A DNA stretch of 64,000 nt from a phage: assembly GCA_025823825.1 (NCBI GenBank), contig GCA_025823825.1_4720.1; one strand, written 5' to 3'. Shown here piece after piece: positions 6,918-43,539 of the stretch. Every line of letters begins with the position of its first letter. Position 1 is the stretch's first letter. Below the pieces are notes generated by a model that searched no databases, was not told the DNA's origin, and saw nothing but the letters and a program-made list of their open reading frames with translations. The translations under genes were made by a program, and so were the position numbers.

Positions 6918-9530
6918 TTAAGCGTCTGGTGTAAAATCAAAAGGAATGTCCGTACGAATGATATCATAACGTTTTCCTAGGAAATAAAACTCTTCGGGAA
7001 CCTGGCCGGGAATAATGCTATCGCCGATGAACTGCGGATACGCCCAGATGTACTGAGTGAGTCCTTCGAACTTATCCAGGTTATTTGCGTGGTTACCCAT
7101 GATACGTTTCCAGAGTTCGCGTTTATACGGTGTTTTAACATCGAATCCATAAAGCGGTGCAAGATCTTCACCAGGAACAAATCCCAGGTAATAATGGATC
7201 TGACTAACCGGGAAACCAAGCGTATCTCGCGGAATGGTGATCGCTTGCTCAGCCTTGGTGACATGCGTTTCAATAATCCAGTCGTAGCACTCCGAATAGA
7301 ACCGATCGAATTTCTCTGGGTTATACCACGCTTTGGGAAGATTCAGTTTCTCCGTGAACGCGTTCGACATGATCGTCGGCAAGAACGGAAGAACGCCGGT
7401 TTTGATCTGCGTGTATTTCGATTTTACCCGGTTAACCAAATTCCAGCAACTGTATCCTAATTGGTCGTTACAAAACTCAACGTAGAGATCGTAGTCACCA
7501 CCGGATAACGGGTTGTTAATATCACCGATGTCTGCGGCGTATTTGTTGGGATATCGGTTATTGAAAGCCAGTTTGGTTTGGTAATCGTAGATACACGGTT
7601 TGTTGTTCGCTGTATTGATCCACCACCAGGGTTCACCTATTTGCACACAAATGTCCTGGACATGGGGGTAGATGATATCAGCAAACGCGGTTAACACGTC
7701 CCCTAACCACGCCATCGCCTGTTGGTTACATGGAGACAGCAACCAGGACGGTGGTGTATATCCGGTTGCGGCGATGTTTCCTTCCCAATCCTGCTGCGCC
7801 CACTCGAACGGGCATGCTGTACTCATCAATTCGTAACTTAAACTGATGGTGACAGAGAAATGGTGTTTTGCAGCATATGCGGCGAAAGCTTCATGCCACG
7901 CGATACAGGGTGGATTTAATACATCCGTGGTGTTCACCAGTAACTTACCCGCACTTGGCGTCCAGACAGTATCGTAGAAATGCGACATTCCAACATAATG
8001 CACTAATTCATCTTGATACCCCGCATAAACCAGGTTTTCAAATACGCGCTCCGGCGTGATGTTGTAATGGTCATCGTAAGCGGTTATCGCACGAAGTTCG
8101 TGTGGTGTACAATGATGGCGATTAACCGTCATTTCTTGATACACCCCATCGATAGGAAGAATCTCGAGGGTTAAACCGAGGTCGATTGGCGTTTCCAGAT
8201 AGGTCGTTTCAGTCGCATCTTCCTTATAATGTCGAGAACTCATGCTGAACATCAACGACGTTACCGATTCGAGTTCGATAGGCTCGTCAGCATAGAACCC
8301 CGCCATTGCGTCATTGAAATCGATCGTTACGATTGCGCTTCTACCGTCTTCAGAGACATCGGTGGCGTATCGGGTTAATGAGATATACTGACGGCTATCG
8401 TCTTTGTGTACGATGGTTAGAACCGGCGGGTTTTCGGTATCTGCAAAGTTACGCTGATCGCCAGTAAACGTGATCTTCGCTTTAAAGATCAAACCGAATA
8501 ACGACGTCATGGGATCATACGCAATACAACCGTGATCCAGCGTATCCGTTGTCCGCCATTCTATCCCGACCAACCCGTTAGCGGTATGGCATCGCATATA
8601 CGCATTAAGGACCATGTCTTCACTGACAACCGCGAAGTTCTCTGTTGACTGACCGTTGATAATCCAATACATCGGTTGCCAGAGGTTACGCGTACCTTTT
8701 GCGTAGCGGTAGGTTGGTGCGCCTTTAGGGTTGCCATTATTGAGATGGAATACGGCAGTACCTTGATAATGGTCGTTCGTATTAATCGGAACACTGTAAG
8801 CATCACCGAGATCCGTACGTTCGACCTTCGTGACTGTTGCGTTTTCAAATAACCCACGTAGCGCCGGTAAACCGATATCTTCAGGCGCGTTTTCTCGACG
8901 AATCGCATCCGCGATGCGGTGGGCTAAGGCAGGGTAAATGACCTCACCCTGCTGTAGGTTTGCAAGACCTACAAAGCGATCGGGGTCGATGCTAGCAATC
9001 AATAACTCGACATCACCCTTCGTTCTATCGTCGTTAAGATATTTCAGTCCGGTAAGGTCAAGATGCTGAATAAGCGACAACAGGTTGTATTTACGGTTTT
9101 CAACAGTTAGTACAAGATCGCCTGCCCAAACCAAACTTCCCTCATCCGCTGTTACTTTAACGGATTGTCGGCCTGTGGTAGACGTTGTTGTCGTTTTATT
9201 TAATTGTCCTTGTAGGAAGTCGGTTGCGAGGTCAAAGGCAATGCCGTAACGGTCAGCGACCGCTTGCATGATTTCACGTAACTGGGTATCTTCTTCAATG
9301 ATAATCTTGACAGGTATTCCCAAGAACGCTTTAGCGAGGTCTCGTTTAACCAACGAGACGAATACGGATTTGTAGTATCGACTTCCATCTTTCCCTTTAA
9401 AAAGAATGGAGGTTGTTTCGGGTGCCGATAGAACACGTGCAAATTCAACATCGTCGAAAGTAAGAGAAAGTCCGTTTTTCTCGTTGGTTAATCTTAGTAT
9501 TTCATTTTGCGCGGTTTCATGTAACTTCAT
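6918..9530 (-). CDS. tail fibre/tailspike-like protein (870 aa) with shared N-terminal module
   Basis: N-terminal ~170 aa paralogous to 15425..15952, 16108..17862 and 55648..57102; GAGG 8 nt upstream of ATG. Confidence 0.6.
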   Translation of the reverse strand: MKLHETAQNEILRLTNEKNGLSLTFDDVEFARVLSAPETTSILFKGKDGSRYYKSVFVSLVKRDLAKAFLGIPVKIIIEEDTQLREIMQAVADRYGIAFDLATDFLQGQLNKTTTTSTTGRQSVKVTADEGSLVWAGDLVLTVENRKYNLLSLIQHLDLTGLKYLNDDRTKGDVELLIASIDPDRFVGLANLQQGEVIYPALAHRIADAIRRENAPEDIGLPALRGLFENATVTKVERTDLGDAYSVPINTNDHYQGTAVFHLNNGNPKGAPTYRYAKGTRNLWQPMYWIINGQSTENFAVVSEDMVLNAYMRCHTANGLVGIEWRTTDTLDHGCIAYDPMTSLFGLIFKAKITFTGDQRNFADTENPPVLTIVHKDDSRQYISLTRYATDVSEDGRSAIVTIDFNDAMAGFYADEPIELESVTSLMFSMSSRHYKEDATETTYLETPIDLGLTLEILPIDGVYQEMTVNRHHCTPHELRAITAYDDHYNITPERVFENLVYAGYQDELVHYVGMSHFYDTVWTPSAGKLLVNTTDVLNPPCIAWHEAFAAYAAKHHFSVTISLSYELMSTACPFEWAQQDWEGNIAATGYTPPSWLLSPCNQQAMAWLGDVLTAFADIIYPHVQDICVQIGEPWWWINTANNKPCIYDYQTKLAFNNRYPNKYAADIGDINNPLSGGDYDLYVEFCNDQLGYSCWNLVNRVKSKYTQIKTGVLPFLPTIMSNAFTEKLNLPKAWYNPEKFDRFYSECYDWIIETHVTKAEQAITIPRDTLGFPVSQIHYYLGFVPGEDLAPLYGFDVKTPYKRELWKRIMGNHANNLDKFEGLTQYIWAYPQFIGDSIIPGQVPEEFYFLGKRYDIIRTDIPFDFTPDA

Positions 9531-20487: not shown

Positions 20488-21029
20488 CTTAATAACCTCA
20501 CGATAAGGTGCTGTCCACTGGCGTCTTGATAACGCATCCCGTCTATCGGGTTGTTCTATTCAGCGGGCAGCAGGTTAGCGTCAGATGTTTGCCCGACATC
20601 CACGACAGAAATAAACGGTACTGAAAATACGGTCTCCTCTGGTTTGGCAATAAACATAACGTTGGATAACAGAACCCATTTCCCGCATCCAACGCGGTAA
20701 AGGTGTACATCGTTTGAATTCATATAGTTTCTCAAAGATGTTAACCTCTACCGTCAAGCCATAGGTTGTATTTATCCCGAAGGTATGGATCACGATAAAT
20801 ACGTCGATAGACTTGATACGGTATAAACTTGCAATGTACGAGTTCGTCGCTTAATTTATGACGTCGCTCCATACCGTTGTGAATACGACGTATCTCCCGG
20901 ATATTAAAGGTTGTTTTATTCAAGAGAATAGACATAATGACGGATCGATGATCCAGATTAAAGATCGCCATTACGCCTCGTATCTCGCGTAAAACAACTT
21001 CTCTATCGACAAGGATGCGATTATTTAAC

Positions 21030-21401
21030 TTAAGATTCTCCGTGATACCCATAACCTTCATCCTCGACACGTCGACACATCGGTAAAAATAAACACCAGC
21101 TTGTTGCACTGAGGATCGCCGTTACGATGATATTTGCGATATCACTCAATCGAGCATCGGCTTGCCACATAACAAGCATAAAAAGAACGTACGCGAACCC
21201 ATACACGACAAACCGTCTGATGTTACGCGTCGACCACGTACAAATATACAAAAGGGGAAGTTGTCCTATAACACAAACGATGGTTCGGATAACGTAATAA
21301 ACGCGTTCCGTCGTTGTTTCAAAATCGATATTCGCTGCAGAAATCCCGATCATTATAAAAGTGAAAATGAAATAGATTTTTGCGTATGTCTTTAAACTCA
21401 T
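21030..21401 (-). CDS. membrane protein (multiple TM segments), holin-like candidate
   Basis: Several hydrophobic stretches (IYFIFTFIMIGISAA, FAYVLFMLVMW, IIVTAILSATSWCLFL). Confidence 0.4.
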   Translation of the reverse strand: MSLKTYAKIYFIFTFIMIGISAANIDFETTTERVYYVIRTIVCVIGQLPLLYICTWSTRNIRRFVVYGFAYVLFMLVMWQADARLSDIANIIVTAILSATSWCLFLPMCRRVEDEGYGYHGES

Positions 21402-21417
21402 GGCTTTTCTCGTTCGT

Positions 21418-21651
21418 TTATTTGCGTTTTCCTACATTCCTCAACAAGGTAACGATAACGAATACCGCTATCATCAAGAAGACGAACCATAACCCTACGT
21501 TAATTCGGGCGGCTGGTACATCCACCATAAGGAACATCGTCCCACAAAAACCAATTACCATCCATGCTAAGACCATCCCTGTTAATCCCCGTAGTAGCAT
21601 ATGTCCCATCATGAACTCCTTCTTACTTTTTCTGATAGAGCGATGATTCAA
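21418..21651 (-). CDS. small membrane protein (2 TM), holin-like candidate
   Basis: LTGMVLAWMVIGFCGTMFLMV and LWFVFLMIAVFVIVTLL followed by basic tail. Confidence 0.4.
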   Translation of the reverse strand: MNHRSIRKSKKEFMMGHMLLRGLTGMVLAWMVIGFCGTMFLMVDVPAARINVGLWFVFLMIAVFVIVTLLRNVGKRK

Positions 21652-22013
21652 ATTTTAGAAACACCGCTAACGCGAGTGCGATTAATAACGCACGTACCCA
21701 CATACCTCCTTGACAACTGTTGTACAACATAAAGACCAGAGCGATGCCGCCCATATGCAGGCGGCACTTATCGAACAGTGTTGGTTTATACATAAGAGAT
21801 CAATCGTTGAGTGATTTTTACTTTGCCTTTACCTGGGCCTTTCTTACAGCGATTCAACAGACGGATACGAGTTCGGGTTACGACGTCGCCATCATAATCA
21901 GCCTGGAACTGTGATAAGAAAGCAGGTTGTATCGGATCGACACCAGGATTGCTATAGAAAGGATTGAGACTTAAAAGAGGGTTAGCTGGAATCATCGTAT
22001 TGTCCTTACTCAG

Positions 22014-22364
22014 TTATTTACCCAGATAGAGGTATTCACCACCCTGAACAACACCGGTTGCTGGATCAACAAGTATACGAACCCGCGCGTAGGTCTTGAA
22101 AGAGGGGTTGAAAACTTCGAAGTCCGCCACTTTCAATTTCACGCTGGGGTTGATTGGGTTCTTAACACCAGGAAGTTCTTTCGGGGTACCGAAGTCAACA
22201 CCGCATTCTTCAAGGTCTGCTGGCGTCATGCTCTCCATGGCCATGTAGATTGTTTTTGCTTTATCGTAAACTTCCGGGCTATCCAGCAATCCCGCCTGCG
22301 CCGAACCGATAACACTACCGAACAGAATAGCAACAGCAACAAACAATTTAGTTAACGTTTTCAT
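22014..22364 (-). CDS. secreted protein (signal peptide)
   Basis: MKTLTKLFVAVAILFGSVIGSAQA signal-peptide-like N-terminus. Confidence 0.5.
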   Translation of the reverse strand: MKTLTKLFVAVAILFGSVIGSAQAGLLDSPEVYDKAKTIYMAMESMTPADLEECGVDFGTPKELPGVKNPINPSVKLKVADFEVFNPSFKTYARVRILVDPATGVVQGGEYLYLGK

Positions 22365-22402
22365 GATCGTTTCCTTAATAACTTAAATAAACCAATTTAG
22401 TA

Positions 22403-22825
22403 TTAACGTACAGCCGCTACGCTGCGAGCGCATGCCTGAATATCATCGGTGTTTACGATGATGGTTTCGTTAAACGCACGAATACGTGCGCGACGTGCTT
22501 CTTTAAGGCTGGCGATTGCGCTAGCAGCTTGATCTGTATTCGCAAGGCTAATAACCGGGATCAAACGCATGTCAGGACTGCAGATATTCAATGCTTGGTA
22601 CACACGTCCATTGATTCCCACGGTATCAGACATCGGATAGTGCGCACGGCATTGAAATTGACCCATGACAACAAGCGAACGATCGGAGATACCAATCTGA
22701 TAACGGCCGTCTTCGCTGTAGGCGTAGCAGTTATTCCCACGAGCCATCCAGTTAGCCTGTGCTTGTGTGCTAACAAAAGCCAGGGTGGTGACGATAGCGA
22801 ATACGATATTTTTGAACAGTTTCAT
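22403..22825 (-). CDS. secreted protein (signal peptide)
   Basis: Start set at internal ATG 22825: MKLFKNIVFAIVTTLAFVSTQAQA. Confidence 0.5.
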   Translation of the reverse strand: MKLFKNIVFAIVTTLAFVSTQAQANWMARGNNCYAYSEDGRYQIGISDRSLVVMGQFQCRAHYPMSDTVGINGRVYQALNICSPDMRLIPVISLANTDQAASAIASLKEARRARIRAFNETIIVNTDDIQACARSVAAVR

Positions 22826-22883
22826 GATAAAGATCCTTATTGAAATAAAATCGGTATAAAGGCCCCCATTTAGGGGGACCTGA

Positions 22884-23201
22884 TTAGTTTGCACGTAAGA
22901 AATGACCCAGAACCGTTACGATTGGAAACAGCCCTGTAACAGTATTATCACCCGAAAACATCATCATTGTTCCGTTAACGGTGATGAAACGGATGTCGGT
23001 TGCGGACCCATCGATAGCGACAAAACGCATCGAGTTCGGTGGAAGGTCCTCAACCACTTCCACGAGGTACTCGCGATTATCAAAGGCTTCTTTAACACGA
23101 CGCATGAAACGAATCAAGGTTCCTTCCGCGTCAGCTTCCAAATGACCTAAGATATCGCGATTATTACGAATAGCAAATACAGCCATTTTAAACATACTCA
23201 T
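22884..23201 (-). CDS. hypothetical protein (105 aa)
   Basis: Minus-strand ORF; no motif recognised. Confidence 0.4.
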   Translation of the reverse strand: MSMFKMAVFAIRNNRDILGHLEADAEGTLIRFMRRVKEAFDNREYLVEVVEDLPPNSMRFVAIDGSATDIRFITVNGTMMMFSGDNTVTGLFPIVTVLGHFLRAN

Positions 23202-26838: not shown

Positions 26839-27267
26839 TTATTCATTTTCAATAACTTTAAGATTCGGTGTACCAAGCGTTTTCTTCACCAACGCTTCGG
26901 CAACACGTTTCTCGATGAAATCGGTCGCATTGCTTCCGTCTATCGTACGCATGTCGCCACGGAAGTTATTGAAGACCATAAACAAGTCACAACCGTCGAT
27001 AGGTATCGCAAGATCATAACTGACTTGTGATGCCGTGAAATGGACACCCACGACAACGGCGGGAACGAATTTAACCGCTGTGTTATCTCCTTCTTCTCCG
27101 GTTCCGAACGGAAGCTCAACACGATCACCGATAGAGAACTGTGAGACATCATTAATCGCGTGAGTTAGTGCGATTCGTTGCATGTCGGCGATCTTTTCCT
27201 TATTCGCGTCGCAAGGTAGGTCCAAGACTTCTTCCAACGTGAAGAATTTACGATCGAACCAGCTCAT
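26839..27267 (-). CDS. hypothetical protein (142 aa)
   Basis: Minus-strand ORF; no motif recognised. Confidence 0.45.
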   Translation of the reverse strand: MSWFDRKFFTLEEVLDLPCDANKEKIADMQRIALTHAINDVSQFSIGDRVELPFGTGEEGDNTAVKFVPAVVVGVHFTASQVSYDLAIPIDGCDLFMVFNNFRGDMRTIDGSNATDFIEKRVAEALVKKTLGTPNLKVIENE

Positions 27268-37955: not shown

Positions 37956-38264
37956 TTAGTGAAGAATTACCGTTTGCGATCCGTTCTCGTATTCGGTAAG
38001 TAACTCGTCATACCGACGATCGACTACCTTGATTGCATTATCGATCTCTGTCGTGTCTGATACAACAGATCGTTTCGCTTCCAGTCGATATACTAACGCA
38101 TCACGCATACCCTCGGCTGCAGCGAGTTCACAGGTTGCTTGATGTTTATTATCCGAAAAGACGAAGAATGGTTTGTTCTCTTCATCGGCCAGGAAGTAGT
38201 TACGAATCTCAACCAACCTTTCATCTGGAACCAGTTCACATTTGTTTTCGTTCATTTTCATCAT
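37956..38264 (-). CDS. hypothetical protein (102 aa)
   Basis: Minus-strand ORF. Confidence 0.4.
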   Translation of the reverse strand: MMKMNENKCELVPDERLVEIRNYFLADEENKPFFVFSDNKHQATCELAAAEGMRDALVYRLEAKRSVVSDTTEIDNAIKVVDRRYDELLTEYENGSQTVILH

Positions 38265-38269
38265 CTCTC

Positions 38270-38602
38270 TTAAAGTTTTAACGTATTGACGCCGCTTATA
38301 AAGGCGTTGATTTCATTGTCAATATTACCAGTTTGCTCGATAATCTTCTCCACGGTCAATCTTGGTTTGTTGTAAGCGATACATACAGCATCGGGACCAT
38401 TTCCATACATGCTCGCGACGTAAATTCGAAGTTCTTTTAAACGATCAAGTAACAACTGTGTGATATCCAGAACTTCTTCTGTGGCGGTCTGTGTGTTGCA
38501 TTCGCGTAACTTGTGTTCTAACAGCGAAGTCGCAGCATCGAGCATGGATGTGTATTTACGGTAGTTATAAATATCAATTATAGCTGTCTGATTCATATAC
38601 AC
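38270..38602 (-). CDS. hypothetical protein (110 aa)
   Basis: Minus-strand ORF. Confidence 0.4.
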   Translation of the reverse strand: MYMNQTAIIDIYNYRKYTSMLDAATSLLEHKLRECNTQTATEEVLDITQLLLDRLKELRIYVASMYGNGPDAVCIAYNKPRLTVEKIIEQTGNIDNEINAFISGVNTLKL

Positions 38603-38607
38603 GTTAT

Positions 38608-38976
38608 TTATTTATCGGGGTCTGGAAAATAGTAAAATCGCCAATACAACATAGAAATCGCATTTCTTATTCGATTCGCACGAACACGGCGTCCGAGAAA
38701 GGACTTGTAGCAAGAATCGCAATCCATAAACAACTCATGGCTCGATTTCATCAGAACCACGATATCTCTTATATACGAATTGCAGTACTCGATAAACGGG
38801 TCTGTATCGTACGTATATTTCCTCGCACTACCTATCCCCAACTCTCTATTTAACTCACGACAATTTATCATGAGCTTCACATAACGGATAAGCCGAACGA
38901 AGTCACGTAAATTACGATTAAACCAATATCGATACCAAAATGACTGTATACTCCGAACAGTTCTATTTAACTTCAT
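38608..38976 (-). CDS. hypothetical protein (122 aa)
   Basis: Minus-strand ORF in AT-rich block. Confidence 0.4.
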   Translation of the reverse strand: MKLNRTVRSIQSFWYRYWFNRNLRDFVRLIRYVKLMINCRELNRELGIGSARKYTYDTDPFIEYCNSYIRDIVVLMKSSHELFMDCDSCYKSFLGRRVRANRIRNAISMLYWRFYYFPDPDK

Positions 38977-39604
38977 TGATACCTTCTATTAGTTGTACAG
39001 CAACTTCTTTTTCGGTGCTATAAAAGAACTTGCGGTGGAACTGAACAAGAAGCTTTTCGAATTTACATTGAACGATCTTTTTGCGTTCGATATGACCCAG
39101 GGAGAGCAAAGCACCCATGCAACGTACCGCTTGTTCGAGAACTTGTTTCGCGGTATCGTGATCGTCCGGTAACGGTAAATCTTCCTCATCGTCTTTAGCG
39201 ATAAGGCGTCTGATGATGTTATCGATACGTATCTCATCACCGTTAATAAAAGCCCCCTTCTCCCAGTCATCGAATCGTTGATGGATTCGACGTTGTAAGT
39301 TGGCTCTGTCTTCCATTAACTCTTTCAACTGGCTTTCTAAGTGGGATACGGTACGGCGGTCGGTTTCAGTGAAGTTTTCCGATTCTTTGTACCACCAATC
39401 ATTACGCGATAGTAAATCGTTAACGCGCGAAATCGTCCGACGACACTCACTAACAAGCCCATCACCATTCGGTAGCTCCGTGCCGAAATAGCATTTGTAT
39501 TTATAACGCATAACACGGATTAAACGTTTCGCTAGAAAACCTTGCCTTTCCAGTTTCTTCTTCAGTTGTGTGTATTTCTCTTCTTTTGTTTCCATTAATT
39601 CCAT
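38963..39604 (-). CDS. hypothetical protein (213 aa)
   Basis: Minus-strand ORF in AT-rich block. Confidence 0.45.
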   Translation of the reverse strand: MELMETKEEKYTQLKKKLERQGFLAKRLIRVMRYKYKCYFGTELPNGDGLVSECRRTISRVNDLLSRNDWWYKESENFTETDRRTVSHLESQLKELMEDRANLQRRIHQRFDDWEKGAFINGDEIRIDNIIRRLIAKDDEEDLPLPDDHDTAKQVLEQAVRCMGALLSLGHIERKKIVQCKFEKLLVQFHRKFFYSTEKEVAVQLIEGINEVK

Positions 39605-39993
39605 GATGTTGTACCTCGTTCAGCAATCAGGAGAGTCGTGGTTGTGCTTTTCACTAATCTATTAAAGTCTTGATATATCCGCCTGAGGGATGGTTTCAAA
39701 TCACAATAACGGCTGAAATAAACCTTCAAGTCATCTTTTGTCACAGTCTCCGTATTTATTTTCGTAGAAACACCGAGATCGATAAACTCTTTTCTTAATT
39801 GGGATAATTCATCAAGAAGTCGATGGTGGCTTAGATAAATAACAGATTTATCGGATAACAACTCGCCGGTTATCCGGCTCTGGCGTTCATCGAAATATTG
39901 GAGCCGCCATTCAATTCGCTTACGTAATTTATCAAGTAAATCAACAAAAGCGGTATAGCTGTTAACGGCTAGGTTAACTTGACTCGTTATCAT
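39595..39993 (-). CDS. hypothetical protein (132 aa)
   Basis: Minus-strand ORF in AT-rich block. Confidence 0.4.
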   Translation of the reverse strand: MITSQVNLAVNSYTAFVDLLDKLRKRIEWRLQYFDERQSRITGELLSDKSVIYLSHHRLLDELSQLRKEFIDLGVSTKINTETVTKDDLKVYFSRYCDLKPSLRRIYQDFNRLVKSTTTTLLIAERGTTSWN

Positions 39994-40340
39994 TCCACTT
40001 TCTCCGTTATATGCTTTAAACTGTTACGTATACTTTTCAATCGATGGTTAAATCCGGAACGATAACATTTCCGTACATCCCGTGCTGCTCGCGCTTTATT
40101 CGCCTGATGAAGCTGCTCATTCACCTGCGACGCTATACGTAAACGCTCTAATAAAGACCTCAACCGAACGACAACCAACGGCTGTTCTTTTACCTTCTCT
40201 AGTTTGAGTAAAGAGTCAATATGAAACTTTATTTCGATAATCTGATTCCTGTTTTTGCGGTACTGATGAATATACCAACATCGACGAAAATAGGCGATGT
40301 TTAGCATCGGGTAGATCCTTTTCAACGCTACCTCCAACAA
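39990..40340 (-). CDS. hypothetical protein (116 aa), basic
   Basis: Minus-strand ORF in AT-rich block. Confidence 0.4.
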   Translation of the reverse strand: MLEVALKRIYPMLNIAYFRRCWYIHQYRKNRNQIIEIKFHIDSLLKLEKVKEQPLVVVRLRSLLERLRIASQVNEQLHQANKARAARDVRKCYRSGFNHRLKSIRNSLKHITEKVE

Positions 40341-40525
40341 TACATCGGATTAGGCGCTTTATGGTATTTATAGATACCTACTTTCTTCTGTCTGCCTTTA
40401 CCCGGGCCTCGTTTAATACGTTTGTTATAAACACGATCCAAATATCGAGTGGTGATACATCGGGATAAATACACCGGATCGATATATTCTAGCGTACCTG
40501 CTTCTGTCACTTCGAGGCATTGCAT
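40328..40525 (-). CDS. small basic protein (65 aa) with KRGPGKGRQKK motif
   Basis: One of three tandem mini-ORFs sharing a Lys/Gly-rich motif. Confidence 0.3.
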   Translation of the reverse strand: MQCLEVTEAGTLEYIDPVYLSRCITTRYLDRVYNKRIKRGPGKGRQKKVGIYKYHKAPNPMYCWR

Positions 40526-40551
40526 GCGTAACCTCTCTTTTCTCTAAAAAG

Positions 40552-40755
40552 TCAGTCCAACATAAGCCACGGCATCGCTTTCGCGATAGAATCCACCGCA
40601 GCATTTGCGATCCTTCGTTCAGTCGTCGGTACCACATGTGCAACGAACCGTTTCCCTTTATTGCAACCTTTCTTGTGTTTTCCTTTGACTAAACGAACAC
40701 CGATCATGTCATTGATAACATGATTTAGTATGTAGCGCTGTAGAGAATTAATCAT
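40552..40755 (-). CDS. small basic protein (67 aa) with KGKHKKGCNKGKR motif
   Basis: Tandem mini-ORF, shared Lys/Gly-rich motif. Confidence 0.3.
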   Translation of the reverse strand: MINSLQRYILNHVINDMIGVRLVKGKHKKGCNKGKRFVAHVVPTTERRIANAAVDSIAKAMPWLMLD

Positions 40756-40894
40756 CGCTTTTACTCCAGGCAGAGAAGATTCTCGGTTTTAGTTCTATCT
40801 GTCCGCATATCCAGGTGTATCTCCATTTACCTTTACGAGGACCTTTCTTATTTTTAACACCTATCAGAATACGATAGGGGTATGACCAAGCCAT
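40748..40894 (-). CDS. small basic protein (~48 aa) with KNKKGPRKGKW motif
   Basis: Hand-translated from ATG 40894 (MAWSYPYRILIGVKNKKGPRKGKWRYTWICG...); below ORF-track size cut-off, stop position approximate. Confidence 0.25.
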   Translation of the reverse strand: MAWSYPYRILIGVKNKKGPRKGKWRYTWICGQIELKPRIFSAWSKSDD

Positions 40895-40924
40895 TCTAAA
40901 CTCCTAAAATAAATCTCAATGTTC

Positions 40925-41251
40925 TTAATGCAACCGCTTCTCGAAGTCGGTTTTAAGAAGCATCATTCTTTCATCGATAGTATCCAACGCTTTCAGTAAT
41001 GATTTACGTTGTTCTTTCGTAAGCATTTCAGCTCGAAGACGTTCGTTAATTCCCGCTTTAAGCTGTATAGGAAGGGCTTGTGTAAGCACGCTATCAGCTT
41101 CTATCTCGTAACTATTTTTCGGTGGGGGTAATGCTGCAATAACACCAACGAGATAACAACCGACAATAGTTATCCGTTTATCCATTGCTTCTAACAGTTC
41201 AGAACTTACTTCATCCACGATAGTCCTCCGTATTAGGGTGGGCGTACCCAC
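40925..41251 (-). CDS. hypothetical protein (108 aa)
   Basis: Minus-strand ORF. Confidence 0.45.
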   Translation of the reverse strand: MGTPTLIRRTIVDEVSSELLEAMDKRITIVGCYLVGVIAALPPPKNSYEIEADSVLTQALPIQLKAGINERLRAEMLTKEQRKSLLKALDTIDERMMLLKTDFEKRLH

Positions 41252-41265
41252 CCTCAGTTGTTACT

Positions 41266-42285
41266 TTACACCGCCACCTTGGCCTTGATAGCGGGGTGTG
41301 ATTGATATCCGACGAACACAAAGTCTTCGTAACGGTAATCCGTAATACTTTCTGGTTTACGTACGATTGTTAGCTTCGGTAATGGATACGGCTCACGACT
41401 AAGTTGTTCTTTAACCTGTTCGAAATGGTTGTGATAGATATGACAATCTCCACCTGTCCACACGAACTCACCAACGTCCATATTCAACTGCTGGGCAAGC
41501 ATGTGTGTTAACAACGAATATGAGGCGATGTTGAATGGTGTTCCAAGCAGTACGTCCTGCGATCTTGCTAGCAGCATACACGACAAGGCACGTGTTGGTA
41601 CGTTATGCGCATTCAACCAAAGTTCCGTTTCACTGTGTCGTACATCATCCGTAACCCACTGGGTTCTTAATACGTCGTTGCGTTGAACATAATCAACACG
41701 TTCATCGATCGTGAGCTCGTGGGTATAGAACTGATAGAAACTGTGGCATGCGGGAAGCGCCATATCGTCTAAATCACCTACGTTCCATGCGCTAACGATG
41801 ATTCGTCGAGAATCAGGATCTTCTTTAAGCTGGCGCATCACGTTTGCAATCTGATCGTGATGTTTAACATACACGAGGTGTTTTAGCGTACCGTCATTAA
41901 GAATGCCGCAATACTCGTAACCACGCTGCATCAACTCACGAGTACGCTCTGTATCGTGCGGAACAACCACTTTGTAGTCTATCCATTCCCGCCACTGTCT
42001 ACCGTAAATCGGTCCTAGATTCCCTTCTTCGTCAGCCCACTCATTCCAGATACGAACACCGTTATCTTGAAGATACGCAACATTTGTGTCGCCGTTAAGA
42101 AACCAGAGCAGTTCGTGGATAACGCTCTTAAGGTGAATCTTCTTGGTGGTTACCAGAGGGAATCCTTTCTTCAGGTCAAAACGCATTTGACGTCCAAATA
42201 CGGAACGGGTACCGGTACCTGTACGATCGGCTTTATCGCGACCGTTATCCATGATGTCTTGCAAAAGGTCCAAATACTGTTTCAT
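41266..42285 (-). CDS. thyA: thymidylate synthase
   Basis: Motifs [65 protein letters not shown]. Confidence 0.9.
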
Positions 42286-42485
42286 TTTAATCCTCTAAGT
42301 GTTTCAAGTAGTTCCTGAAATTTGTAACGATATTTAGGATCGCTTAACGTGCAGCAGCAACCATGTAACACGTTATACGCGTAATCGGCTTGTAAACCAC
42401 GAACCTTAGGATCCAATGATAGATTCAATGACGCGCCATCAAAAATCCACGCTTCAATGTTCTTCTTGGATTCCTTCGTTAACAT
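42282..42485 (-). CDS. hypothetical protein (67 aa)
   Basis: Small ORF whose stop overlaps the thyA start. Confidence 0.4.
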
Positions 42486-42558: not shown

Positions 42559-43539
42559 TCAGTAACAGTTATAATGGGTTCCAAGCCGCTCCGGTTTTCT
42601 CAGAAGACTATCTTTAAGCGGTACGACGTCGATATCAACGTTTTCTGAATAATAACCATTAGAACTACCATACCAACGAATAACAACACATCCTTTTGCT
42701 GTACGAATATGGTAAAATGTCCATCGCGTACGTTTGCAAAAGTCGTCATCCTCGTCTCTTTCCTCGGTTCTTTCTTCAGCGCTAAGTATCTTCTCACCAA
42801 TAATGTCGTTAAGATCGCCATCGATGTCTTCAAGGTACACTTTTTCACAGCAATCTTGCTTATGGCAGAATTCAACAACGTTCCCATCGCCCCGATAGAA
42901 AAGAAGGGCAATGCTGTATTGTAGCTGTTCGGCCGTTAAGTCTGTCGCGCAATACAAACTTTGATCTTCGGTTATCACCAAGACATTGTTGATTACGTGT
43001 CCGGCAAGCGCTCCGATCTTATTTACCGTGATAATCGGACGAACGGGTTCAGGTTGAACGATCGGAATACGAACACAACCAATTAAGGCCATCCGTCCTT
43101 TCTTTGGTCTAACCGCAAGGTAAGGTGATTTTCTTGGGTGGTTATGCAGACGTATTTCTAATTCGTCAAATTTAATCCCGTATATACCTAAGAAACGATC
43201 GAACAACCGATGAAACTCATCTGTTGCTTCTTTCAACGTTATGGTGTCTACCGTGAGTTTATGTCCCCTGAACACCCGGGTTATATCGATAACGTCGAGT
43301 GTTTTAAAATGTATTTCCGTAAGGGGGTGATTTGTATTTTCCAGGTATGTAATGGTTCTTTGAACCGCGATTTTAGGTGACGCACCTTTAAAACGTTTCA
43401 GGTATTTAACACGATAGCGTGTATGATCTGATGTTAACATTTTAATCTCCTCTCCCGACTTCAGAGAATTCTTAAAATCCGTTAGTTTTGATAGATGAGG
43501 TAAGACGGCATAAAAGCCTCCCGTAATGGGAGGCTTCAT
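42559..43539 (-). CDS. hypothetical protein (326 aa)
   Basis: Minus-strand ORF. Confidence 0.5.
   Translation of the reverse strand: MKPPITGGFYAVLPHLSKLTDFKNSLKSGEEIKMLTSDHTRYRVKYLKRFKGASPKIAVQRTITYLENTNHPLTEIHFKTLDVIDITRVFRGHKLTVDTITLKEATDEFHRLFDRFLGIYGIKFDELEIRLHNHPRKSPYLAVRPKKGRMALIGCVRIPIVQPEPVRPIITVNKIGALAGHVINNVLVITEDQSLYCATDLTAEQLQYSIALLFYRGDGNVVEFCHKQDCCEKVYLEDIDGDLNDIIGEKILSAEERTEERDEDDDFCKRTRWTFYHIRTAKGCVVIRWYGSSNGYYSENVDIDVVPLKDSLLRKPERLGTHYNCY

Follow-up and report, generated by a model that had tools for sequence, protein, structure and literature searches.

Three adjacent mini-genes on the minus strand of a Goslar-like phage, A65, B67 and C48, were shown to be distinct protein-coding genes, each held under purifying selection. 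Together with a fourth gene, D69, which lies 18.5 kb away amid ORFs for small predicted membrane proteins, with only a few genes between it and an endolysin homolog, they constitute a Goslarvirus-restricted set of predicted small proteins of basic character (48-69 aa, pI ~10). The window, meaning the whole 64,000-nucleotide stretch of DNA that was analysed, was ~93% identical to Goslar, a nucleus-forming E. coli jumbo phage, and by its sequence the phage belongs with Goslar in the Goslar-like cluster. Phages of this cluster are also frequent as persistent infections in Enterobacteriaceae isolates. The four mini-genes were located as follows:

40748..40894, minus strand, C48 (48 aa; Goslar gp139, YP_009820824), with KKGPRKGK at 40826-40849
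40552..40755, minus strand, B67 (67 aa; Goslar HOV27_xxxxx, 'gp138', YP_009820823), with KKGCNKGK at 40651-40674
40328..40525, minus strand, A65 (65 aa; Goslar gp137, YP_009820822), with KRGPGKGR at 40391-40414
21786..21995, minus strand, D69 (69 aa; Goslar gp102, YP_009820787), with KKGPGKGK at 21822-21845

The coordinates, lengths (65, 67 and 48 aa) and motif strings of the three clustered ORFs in the first-pass annotation were all correct, the strand being minus. They had been described as consecutive and non-overlapping, but the start of B67 and the stop of C48 overlap by 8 nt (ATGATTAA). A65 and C48 occupy one reading frame and B67 another, and each of the three has its own Shine-Dalgarno sequence, including AGGAG 6 nt 5' of the ATG of C48 and GAGAGG upstream of the A65 start. 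The Goslar counterparts of the four (gp139, HOV27_xxxxx, gp137 and gp102) are direct orthologs, 92-98% identical, with matching order, lengths and gene overlaps; they are recorded as hypothetical proteins and the shared motif is not mentioned in the records. The calculated properties of the mini-proteins were a pI of 9.8-10.4, a net charge of +5.5 to +8.6 and a composition rich in Trp, Tyr and Phe.

The block containing the three clustered genes was shown to be part of a long, densely packed minus-strand early-gene array of a Goslar-like phage. This array runs from 42485 to 37172, with gene-to-gene gaps of no more than 47 nt or overlaps, and includes the following neighbours of the mini-genes:

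42282-42485, minus strand, gp142 homolog, upstream member of the array
41266-42285, minus strand, thymidylate synthase (thyA), upstream member of the array
40925-41218, minus strand, gp140 homolog, upstream member of the array
39990..40307, minus strand, gp136 homolog, 105 aa, 92% identical to Goslar gp136
39595..39993, minus strand, 132-aa ORF with a presence/absence polymorphism among Goslar-like phages
38963..39604, minus strand, gp135 homolog, 213 aa, near-neutral charge and without a known domain
38608..38976, minus strand, 122-aa Arg- and aromatic-rich ORF, pI 9.8, conserved and unannotated in the Goslar record

In two relatives thyA is interrupted by a GIY-YIG ORF, 1.5 kb from the mini-genes. 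A sigma-70 promoter scan returned fewer matches than expected from shuffles, phage-polymerase promoters being outside the reach of such a scan, and the phiKZ-type promoter motif, which we take to be TATATTAC, was not found in this form near the mini-gene block. In the window and in the two intron-bearing loci, no Rfam family reached the gathering threshold.

Conservation was assessed in the 12 Goslar-like genomes or contigs whose sequence extends to the mini-genes. A65, B67 and C48 were present in the same order, with neither internal stop nor frameshift, in all 12, and their boundaries, start codons and ribosome-binding sites were kept in every relative with sequence extending there. An excess of synonymous changes was detected in each gene: 12 synonymous against 4 non-synonymous changes in C48 (10 genomes, p=3e-6, annotated frame only), 18 against 8 in B67 (p=4e-7, own frame only), 19 against 28 in A65 (p=0.003, own frame only) and 18 against 15 in D69 (p=1e-4). 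Against the diverged lineage L023, dN/dS was 0.29 for C48, 0.30 for B67 and 0.27 for A65, with pS of ~0.4-0.5. In another relative, L022, the A65 frame is still open beside an adjacent deletion, and B67 lacks the C-terminal helix and retains the motif. That these are real, separate and selected genes is almost certain.

Expression was taken from published Goslar RNA-seq, in which A65, B67, C48 and D69 are transcribed and belong to the nucleus-independent early class. Reads from the mini-genes were unchanged on ChmA knockdown (log2FC between about -1 and +1.3); late genes, in contrast, fell by 4-7 log2 units. Read density per nucleotide was similar from thyA through gp135. The mini-proteins were not found in the parts of the Goslar virion mass-spectrometry table that were available.

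The first-pass annotation had offered as one explanation that the ORFs are what is left of a decayed gene, for instance a homing endonuclease; A65, B67 and C48 would then be out-of-frame pieces of a single larger ORF. The three ORFs are adjacent and occupy two frames, as such pieces might, and homing endonucleases do occur in Goslar-like phages, as does the GIY-YIG ORF in thyA. However, purifying selection acts on each ORF in its own frame and in no other, each has its own ribosome-binding site, and a fused longer version is absent from all relatives. Neither a neutral pattern nor variable frameshifts and stops, as in the pseudogene-like evolution of an HNH or GIY-YIG endonuclease, were seen in the 12 genomes or contigs. 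The HNH_3/NUMOD1 endonucleases and the other Goslar ORFs have no similarity to A65, B67 or C48; a tblastn search of the region with every Goslar ORF, the three HNH_3+NUMOD1 proteins among them, gave only noise, and no residual similarity to HNH_3, GIY-YIG or NUMOD1/3 was found with Pfam, PHROG or NCBIfam. The intact conserved order, the own-frame synonymous excess and the early-class transcription together lead us to reject a broken gene, which is now an exceedingly improbable explanation.

The gp136 homolog is very basic (pI 10.7, net charge +15), had 19 synonymous against 13 non-synonymous changes (p=3e-6) and has no recognised domain or family match in Pfam, PHROG or NCBIfam. The gp135 homolog had 28 synonymous against 15 non-synonymous changes (p=3e-10), and gp135 was detected at a low level in the portion of the Goslar virion mass-spectrometry supplement that was available. 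The 122-aa ORF is 97% identical in Goslar, where it falls inside the annotation gap 129351-129716; it had 9 synonymous against 8 non-synonymous changes (p=0.003), and its counterpart in L023 is called as a 121-aa gene. The 132-aa ORF overlaps both neighbours at its start and stop (ATGA), and its sole family hint was a weak PHROG match (E 0.008). It is missing in Goslar and in IMG/VR UViG_3300011560 and is found in L020 and in the diverged L023.

The description of the region as an AT-rich block was borne out by sliding-window GC, the effect being real but modest: the GC content of 38608-40904 was 41.2% against 45.4% for the window (0.412 against 0.454), the 1.5th percentile of same-size windows, or ~2.3 sd. 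The low-GC stretch spans about 38.0 to 41.25 kb. GC3 of the block genes was only 0.4-1.8 sd low, and much of the AT-richness is therefore due to amino-acid composition. Recent acquisition of the block as a foreign island, in the form of a moron-like cassette that brought in the mini-genes as imported cargo, would be compatible with this being the lowest-GC stretch of the window, containing its three lowest-GC genes, and with the gene-sized indels that distinguish strains, namely the 132-aa ORF and the additional DNA of L020 and L021. However, the whole block is syntenic in every Goslar-like lineage, including the two most diverged, so the AT-richness is no sign of foreign origin; the 132-aa ORF appears to be ancestral and then lost rather than gained, and no relatives that could have served as donor were found outside Goslar-like phages. 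Recent acquisition is very unlikely.

The motif common to the three clustered ORFs proved to be real. The pattern [KR][KR]G[PCAS]x[KR]G[KR] was matched 4 times when the window, and likewise all 237 kb of the Goslar genome, was translated in six frames, where shuffles gave an expectation of 0.13, and all four matches lie in small same-strand early ORFs. As the pattern was drawn from the copies in A65, B67 and C48, only the fourth match, D69, is an independent test; it is the sole strict match beyond those three in both the window and the Goslar genome. In every ortholog group conservation was highest at the motif columns, and within each protein it was strongest over ~20-30 residues around K-[KR]-G-[PC]-x-K-G-[KR], with N-terminal parts that vary or are swapped. 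Third codon positions differ, and the conservation is therefore at the protein level only. The C-terminal half of A65 is conserved and its N-terminal half variable, and in the D69 group two unrelated N-termini are joined to an identical motif module. The 8-residue motif is located at residues 15-23, 27-35, 37-45 and 50-57 in otherwise unlike small proteins.

Profile comparison with hhalign gave 72% (E 3e-5) for A65 and D69, 61% (E 8e-5) for C48 and D69 and 17% for A65 and C48, the reversed controls of these three pairs being at most 2.5%. Common ancestry is moderately supported by these profiles for A65 with D69 and for C48 with D69, and weakly for A65 with C48. The best profile match of B67 was to C48 at 12%, no better than the reversed control (8%), and B67 is tied to the set by the motif alone, ~12 residues. 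The Goslarvirus K/G-motif set was defined as basic proteins of less than 100 aa from early-class genes of a Goslar-like phage, carrying K-[KR]-G-x-x-K-G-[KR] after an Arg and a hydrophobic run; A65, B67, C48 and D69 all have these properties.

The mini-proteins had no match in Pfam, PHROG, NCBIfam or PDB sequences, DNA- and RNA-binding families included, and no homologs were found outside Goslar-like phages. An exhaustive phmmer search with B67 over 1.84e9 proteins returned only Goslar-like relatives, an alignment query against a 5.8-billion-protein index returned 105 orthologs, and a scan of genome contigs with A65 gave no matches. B67 also matched glutamyl-tRNA synthetase weakly (E 0.16), as it did a 142-aa ORF at 26839-27267, and both matches were treated as chance. 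The AP2 DNA-binding domain is carried by some phage HNH endonucleases and has the profile YRGV...GKW.A.I, with three sheet strands followed by a helix; its presence, suggested by eye for C48 and B67 ('IGVK..KGKWRYTWI' and 'IGVR..KGKRFVAHV'), had no Pfam support at E<=1 and no PDB match with a single sequence or a family profile; the endonucleases of the Goslar genome carry NUMOD1, not AP2. Presumed resemblances to bS21 and KOW-motif proteins (B67 'PTTERR', D69 'GKGKVKI') had no Pfam, NCBIfam or PDB match at E<=1-10 and are retained as analogies only. Two AF2 models were of low confidence (pLDDT 55, pTM 0.28 and 0.20) and gave no usable fold. No paper on the mini-gene products or their motif was found in the literature.

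Several known systems may be compared. The AT-hook (HMGA-type) is built on an R-G-R-P core; like the mini-proteins it is a short, strongly basic Gly/Pro segment in a small protein, probably unstructured when free, and the likeness is a functional analogy only. Unlike the AT-hook, the cores KRGPGKGR, KKGCNKGK, KKGPRKGK and KKGPGKGK all lack RGRP and have Lys in place of Arg, and there was no Pfam AT_hook match. A resemblance to HU/IHF arms and Cren7/Sso7d-type proteins, which we assume and keep as analogy only, lies in small size and a basic Lys/Gly/Pro-rich segment between hydrophobic or aromatic residues; these DNA binders use a basic beta-arm or loop tipped by Pro or Gly. The mini-proteins match no PDB chain, and neither a hairpin at the motif nor an SH3-like barrel appears in the AF2 models, which are too poor for fold comparison and too weak to argue either way. 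The lineage-specific small early ORFans of large lytic phages such as T4, T7 and phiKZ, which act in host take-over, are alike in size, early expression, dense co-oriented arrays, fast evolution, single-genus range and lack of known domains; they are a category and not a homologous family, and a motif shared across four genes is unusual here. The mini-genes are phage ORFans of the ordinary kind, and their one mildly interesting feature is the shared motif.

Nucleic-acid binding, proposed from the basic pI, the net charge and the conserved Lys/Gly segment, is our best guess for A65, B67, C48 and D69, and a tentative one; the basic stretch may just as well bind a membrane or the acidic surface of a protein. 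The Lys/Gly(/Pro) segment would be the working part, most likely touching a polyanion (DNA or RNA). It may lack a fixed structure before binding, as AT-hook-like or arm-like basic motifs do, while the variable remainder of each protein would supply its own specificity or partner. Their early expression, which does not depend on the phage nucleus, would place the action of the mini-proteins in the opening minutes of infection, in host take-over or on the nucleic acid of either phage or host.

The segment might instead serve as a short linear motif for docking or targeting that one common protein partner recognises. This could be a host target, for example, or a phage factor belonging to the early-infection vesicle, the nuclear shell or the import machinery, and the four mini-proteins would be cargoes or adaptors bearing the same tag. 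The recurrence of the same eight residues at different positions in dissimilar proteins, the N-termini swapped onto a constant module, the early-class transcription of all four genes and the absence of regular structure at the motif in the AF2 models, typical of linear motifs, are consistent with this. However, low AF2 confidence does not equal disorder, and the motif is found in no larger Goslar protein, whereas more cargo would be expected to carry it if it were a general targeting signal; we know of no linear signal reported in published chimallivirus protein-import work. Such docking is considered rather doubtful. That KKGPxKGK is a transferable tag for a single partner, for example a component of the vesicle, nuclear shell or import system or a host hub protein, is less likely still, and if true it would be the first sorting or docking signal defined by sequence in a chimallivirus. 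Host inhibitors are common among the early mini-proteins of phages, and the four might also be small cationic peptides, effectors or toxins, directed at the host envelope or at some other host process (lysis timing, growth inhibition), which would use their basic and aromatic residues for binding at the membrane interface. The Lys/Arg- and Trp/Tyr/Phe-rich composition and the setting of D69 near membrane-protein ORFs and the endolysin homolog are in keeping with this, but A65, B67 and C48 adjoin thymidylate synthase among non-membrane genes, no hydrophobic segment of membrane-spanning length could be read from the sequences, and a signal peptide was not evident. An effector role appears unlikely.

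The 122-aa ORF fills one annotation gap of Goslar, and the mini-ORFs should be kept as genes. The practical value of the mini-genes is modest at present, and their motif is flagged for attention. If the motif is a nucleic-acid-binding or docking element, the four genes would offer a small, tractable entry to early Goslar-type infection, in which most genes have no assigned function.

The GC content of the block at 38608-40904 was 0.412 compared with 0.454 for the window, the 1.5th percentile among windows of the same size, bearing out the AT-richness described in the first-pass annotation. The low-GC stretch extends from ∼38.0 to 41.25 kb and, in a gene-level comparison, the three genes with the lowest GC in the window were all located inside the block. 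GC3 in the block was only 0.4-1.8 sd under the mean, therefore the shift arises largely from proteins rich in Lys, Asn, Ile, Tyr and Arg rather than from foreign codon bias.

The region 38000-42300 was 93.7% identical to Escherichia phage vB_EcoM_Goslar, a nucleus-forming chimallivirus of 237 kb, over 91% of the region length. All genes of the region lie on the minus strand and, from 42485 to 37172, intergenic gaps are ≤47 nt or the genes overlap, forming one operon-like array. The three mini-genes of the block, and a fourth gene sharing their motif, are as follows:

40748-40894, minus strand, C48, 48 aa, Goslar gp139
40552-40755, minus strand, B67, 67 aa, Goslar HOV27_xxxxx
40328-40525, minus strand, A65, 65 aa, Goslar gp137
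21786-21995, minus strand, D69, Goslar gp102, fourth motif copy

The coordinates of the three mini-ORFs and the motif strings quoted for them in the first-pass annotation were confirmed; the ORFs are consecutive as described, but not strictly non-overlapping, as C48 and B67 share 8 nt. The Goslar record lists hypothetical proteins of identical sizes (gp139, 147 nt; HOV27_xxxxx, 204 nt; gp137, 198 nt).

Each of A65, B67 and C48 is preceded by its own Shine-Dalgarno sequence, and compared with Goslar and one IMG/VR genome a synonymous excess was confined to the annotated frame of each ORF (pooled p = 4e-9). Seven further contigs were gained by a metagenome scan and, in the resulting nine or ten genomes, synonymous/non-synonymous counts were 12/4 for C48 (p = 3e-6), 18/8 for B67 (p = 4e-7) and 19/28 for A65 (p = 0.003). 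The orthologs were separate and in the same order in all nine or ten genomes, and neither frameshifts nor internal stops were found in them with two exceptions: the A65 ortholog of contig L016 is without its last two residues and contig L021 stops within B. Of two further diverged lineages, L023 has kept all three mini-genes (dN/dS 0.27-0.30 at pS ∼0.4-0.5; thyA dN/dS 0.06), while in L022 a ∼77-nt deletion takes the C-terminal helix of B and the B-A spacer, and the B motif and full A frame survive. Through this deletion (L022 4190-4290) the B homolog reads on in an alternative frame across the A start and its product becomes 79 aa long (P0003); A keeps an open frame but no longer has a spacer or ribosome-binding site of its own. 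No resemblance to the mini-ORF region was detected among all Goslar ORFs, including three HNH_3+NUMOD1 endonucleases. The proposal of a single frameshifted gene or a degraded homing endonuclease was rejected on the basis of own-frame selection, intact and separate ORFs in relatives and this lack of endonuclease likeness. These data point to the mini-ORFs being genes and not debris.

Six-frame translation of the window gave four matches to the motif [KR][KR]G[PCAS]x[KR]G[KR], and that of the complete Goslar genome likewise gave four, compared with an expectation of 0.13 from shuffles. The fourth copy lies in D69, which also shows purifying selection (18 synonymous versus 15 non-synonymous changes, p = 1e-4). 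When 5.8 billion proteins were searched with a profile, 105 matches were obtained, every one an ortholog of the A, B, C or D groups (the ortholog sets of A65, B67, C48 and D69), on contigs of up to ∼235-250 kb. Some carried the label of an E. coli, Salmonella or Enterobacter isolate, which fits a preprint describing ∼60 low-diversity Goslar-like genomes, mostly from isolate assemblies. Searches of other phage records and of GTDB genomes gave no relatives, nor did IMG/VR besides two Goslarvirus genomes.

Within each ortholog group the most conserved columns were the motif and its flanks. The D group includes 69-aa and 96-aa forms with unrelated N-terminal halves and an identical motif module (P0088-P0095), and one C ortholog has an N-terminal extension of 48 aa. 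The 96-aa form has a second 'RIRLL..RK' element within its N-terminal half. At the DNA level the paralogs resembled one another only over the motif-coding 24-33 nt, where third codon positions differ, so conservation is at the protein level and the duplication is not a recent one. Group profiles were compared pairwise by hhalign with reversed controls, which the near-palindromic motif inflates.

Pairwise comparison of ortholog-group profiles (pair; hhalign probability; E; aligned columns; reversed control)
A-D; 72%; 3e-5; 35; 1.4%
C-D; 61%; 8e-5; 20; 2.5%
A-C; 17%; 1.4e-3; 21; 1.4%
B-C; 12%; 2.6e-3; 13; 8%
B-D; 6%; 6.5e-3; 12; 0.3%
A-B; 0.75%; 0.075; 2; 0.6%

These profiles make homology of A, C and D plausible. 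B has in common with the others only the ∼12-residue motif, its best link (B-C) being no better than the control.

D69 is surrounded (21000-22900) by small ORFs for which membrane segments or signal peptides are predicted (21030-21401, 21418-21651, 21623-21793, 22014-22364 and 22403-22894), a few genes from an endolysin homolog in Goslar; this could be a gene cluster related to lysis or the envelope.

The neighbourhood of the block is a hot spot of small-gene gain and loss. A 396-bp segment (39594-39989) with a complete 132-aa ORF (39595-39993) is missing from Goslar and IMG/VR UViG_3300011560, and the ORF was found in L020, a metagenome contig, and in the diverged L023; repeated loss of an ancestral gene is a more likely explanation than a new insertion. 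The ORF overlaps both neighbouring genes at its start and stop, so that its loss or gain is clean, in the manner of a cassette. A second gene-sized difference, 42559-43450 (ORF 42559-43539, 326 aa), is missing in Goslar and present in the IMG/VR genome; Pfam DUF7448 was matched by L022 and L023 genes (294 and 287 aa) at the syntenic position. Strain-specific extra segments of ∼330 bp were observed between gp135 and the 122-aa ORF in L020 (∼7781-8116) and between thyA and gp140 in L021 (∼1700-2033). This 122-aa Arg- and aromatic-rich ORF (pX122, 38608-38976) is 97% conserved with a synonymous excess and sits in a Goslar RefSeq annotation gap (129351-129716); gene calling in L023 includes it, and the Goslar annotation has probably missed a gene here. 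The homologs of gp135 and gp136 are both conserved orphans.

The window thyA is uninterrupted. In two related metagenome contigs thymidylate synthase is split after ∼residue 242 by ∼1.1 kb (L017 1361-2464; L018 2383-3479; ∼window 41560), the insert containing a 284-aa ORF with apparent GIY-YIG and NUMOD3-like motifs seen by eye; the arrangement resembles that of the T4 td intron, and no Rfam group I intron matched these loci at the gathering threshold. A GC-rich stem-loop (GGGUGGG-UACG-CCCACCC, 41236-41253, minus-strand RNA) lies ∼10 nt past the thyA stop codon and is kept in 11/11 related loci with a locatable thyA end; some of the stem changes among them are paired, e.g. GCGGGCGG/CCGCCCGC in L023. 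The stem-loop is not followed by a U-tract, and it may act in RNA stability, processing or partial termination.

In a Goslar early-infection study (doi 10.1101/2023.09.20.558163, Supplementary Table 2) reads at 30 min were 174/222/190 for gp137, 191/219/201 for HOV27_xxxxx, 62/92/77 for gp139 and 274/322/304 for gp102. On ChmA knockdown the mini-genes changed by ∼−1 to +1.3 log2 units, while structural genes dropped by 4-7 (doi 10.1101/2023.09.20.558163). The mini-genes are thus transcribed, and they fall in the nucleus-independent early class; their reads per nucleotide were similar to those of thyA through gp135. In the part of the Goslar virion mass-spectrometry table that was covered (Goslar structure preprint, 10.64898/2026.04.21.720040) the mini-proteins were not listed, and gp135 (ortholog of 38963-39604) was present at low abundance with 4 peptides.

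The predicted mini-proteins are basic, with a pI of 9.8-10.4 and a net charge between +5.5 and +8.6, and aromatic-rich; neither they nor the family profile matched Pfam, PHROG, NCBIfam or PDB sequences. AF2 models were unusable, both for B67 alone (pLDDT 55, pTM 0.28; two helices either side of an unresolved Lys/Gly segment) and for A65 with a 35-sequence alignment (pLDDT 55, pTM 0.20; one helix, otherwise coil). The best-supported reading, held tentatively, is that the Lys/Gly segment is a putative nucleic acid contact and that the variable remainder would confer the specificity of each protein. Of two live rivals, one in which the segment would be a shared protein-docking tag is considered unlikely, and the other, a membrane or host-toxic peptide role, more improbable still. 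The observation in the first-pass annotation was accurate and one of its two interpretations is refuted; the other, putative nucleic-acid-binding peptides, stays plausible as a reasonable guess. The mini-genes are ordinary lineage-specific early phage genes, the sole mildly interesting feature being the motif common to four of them.
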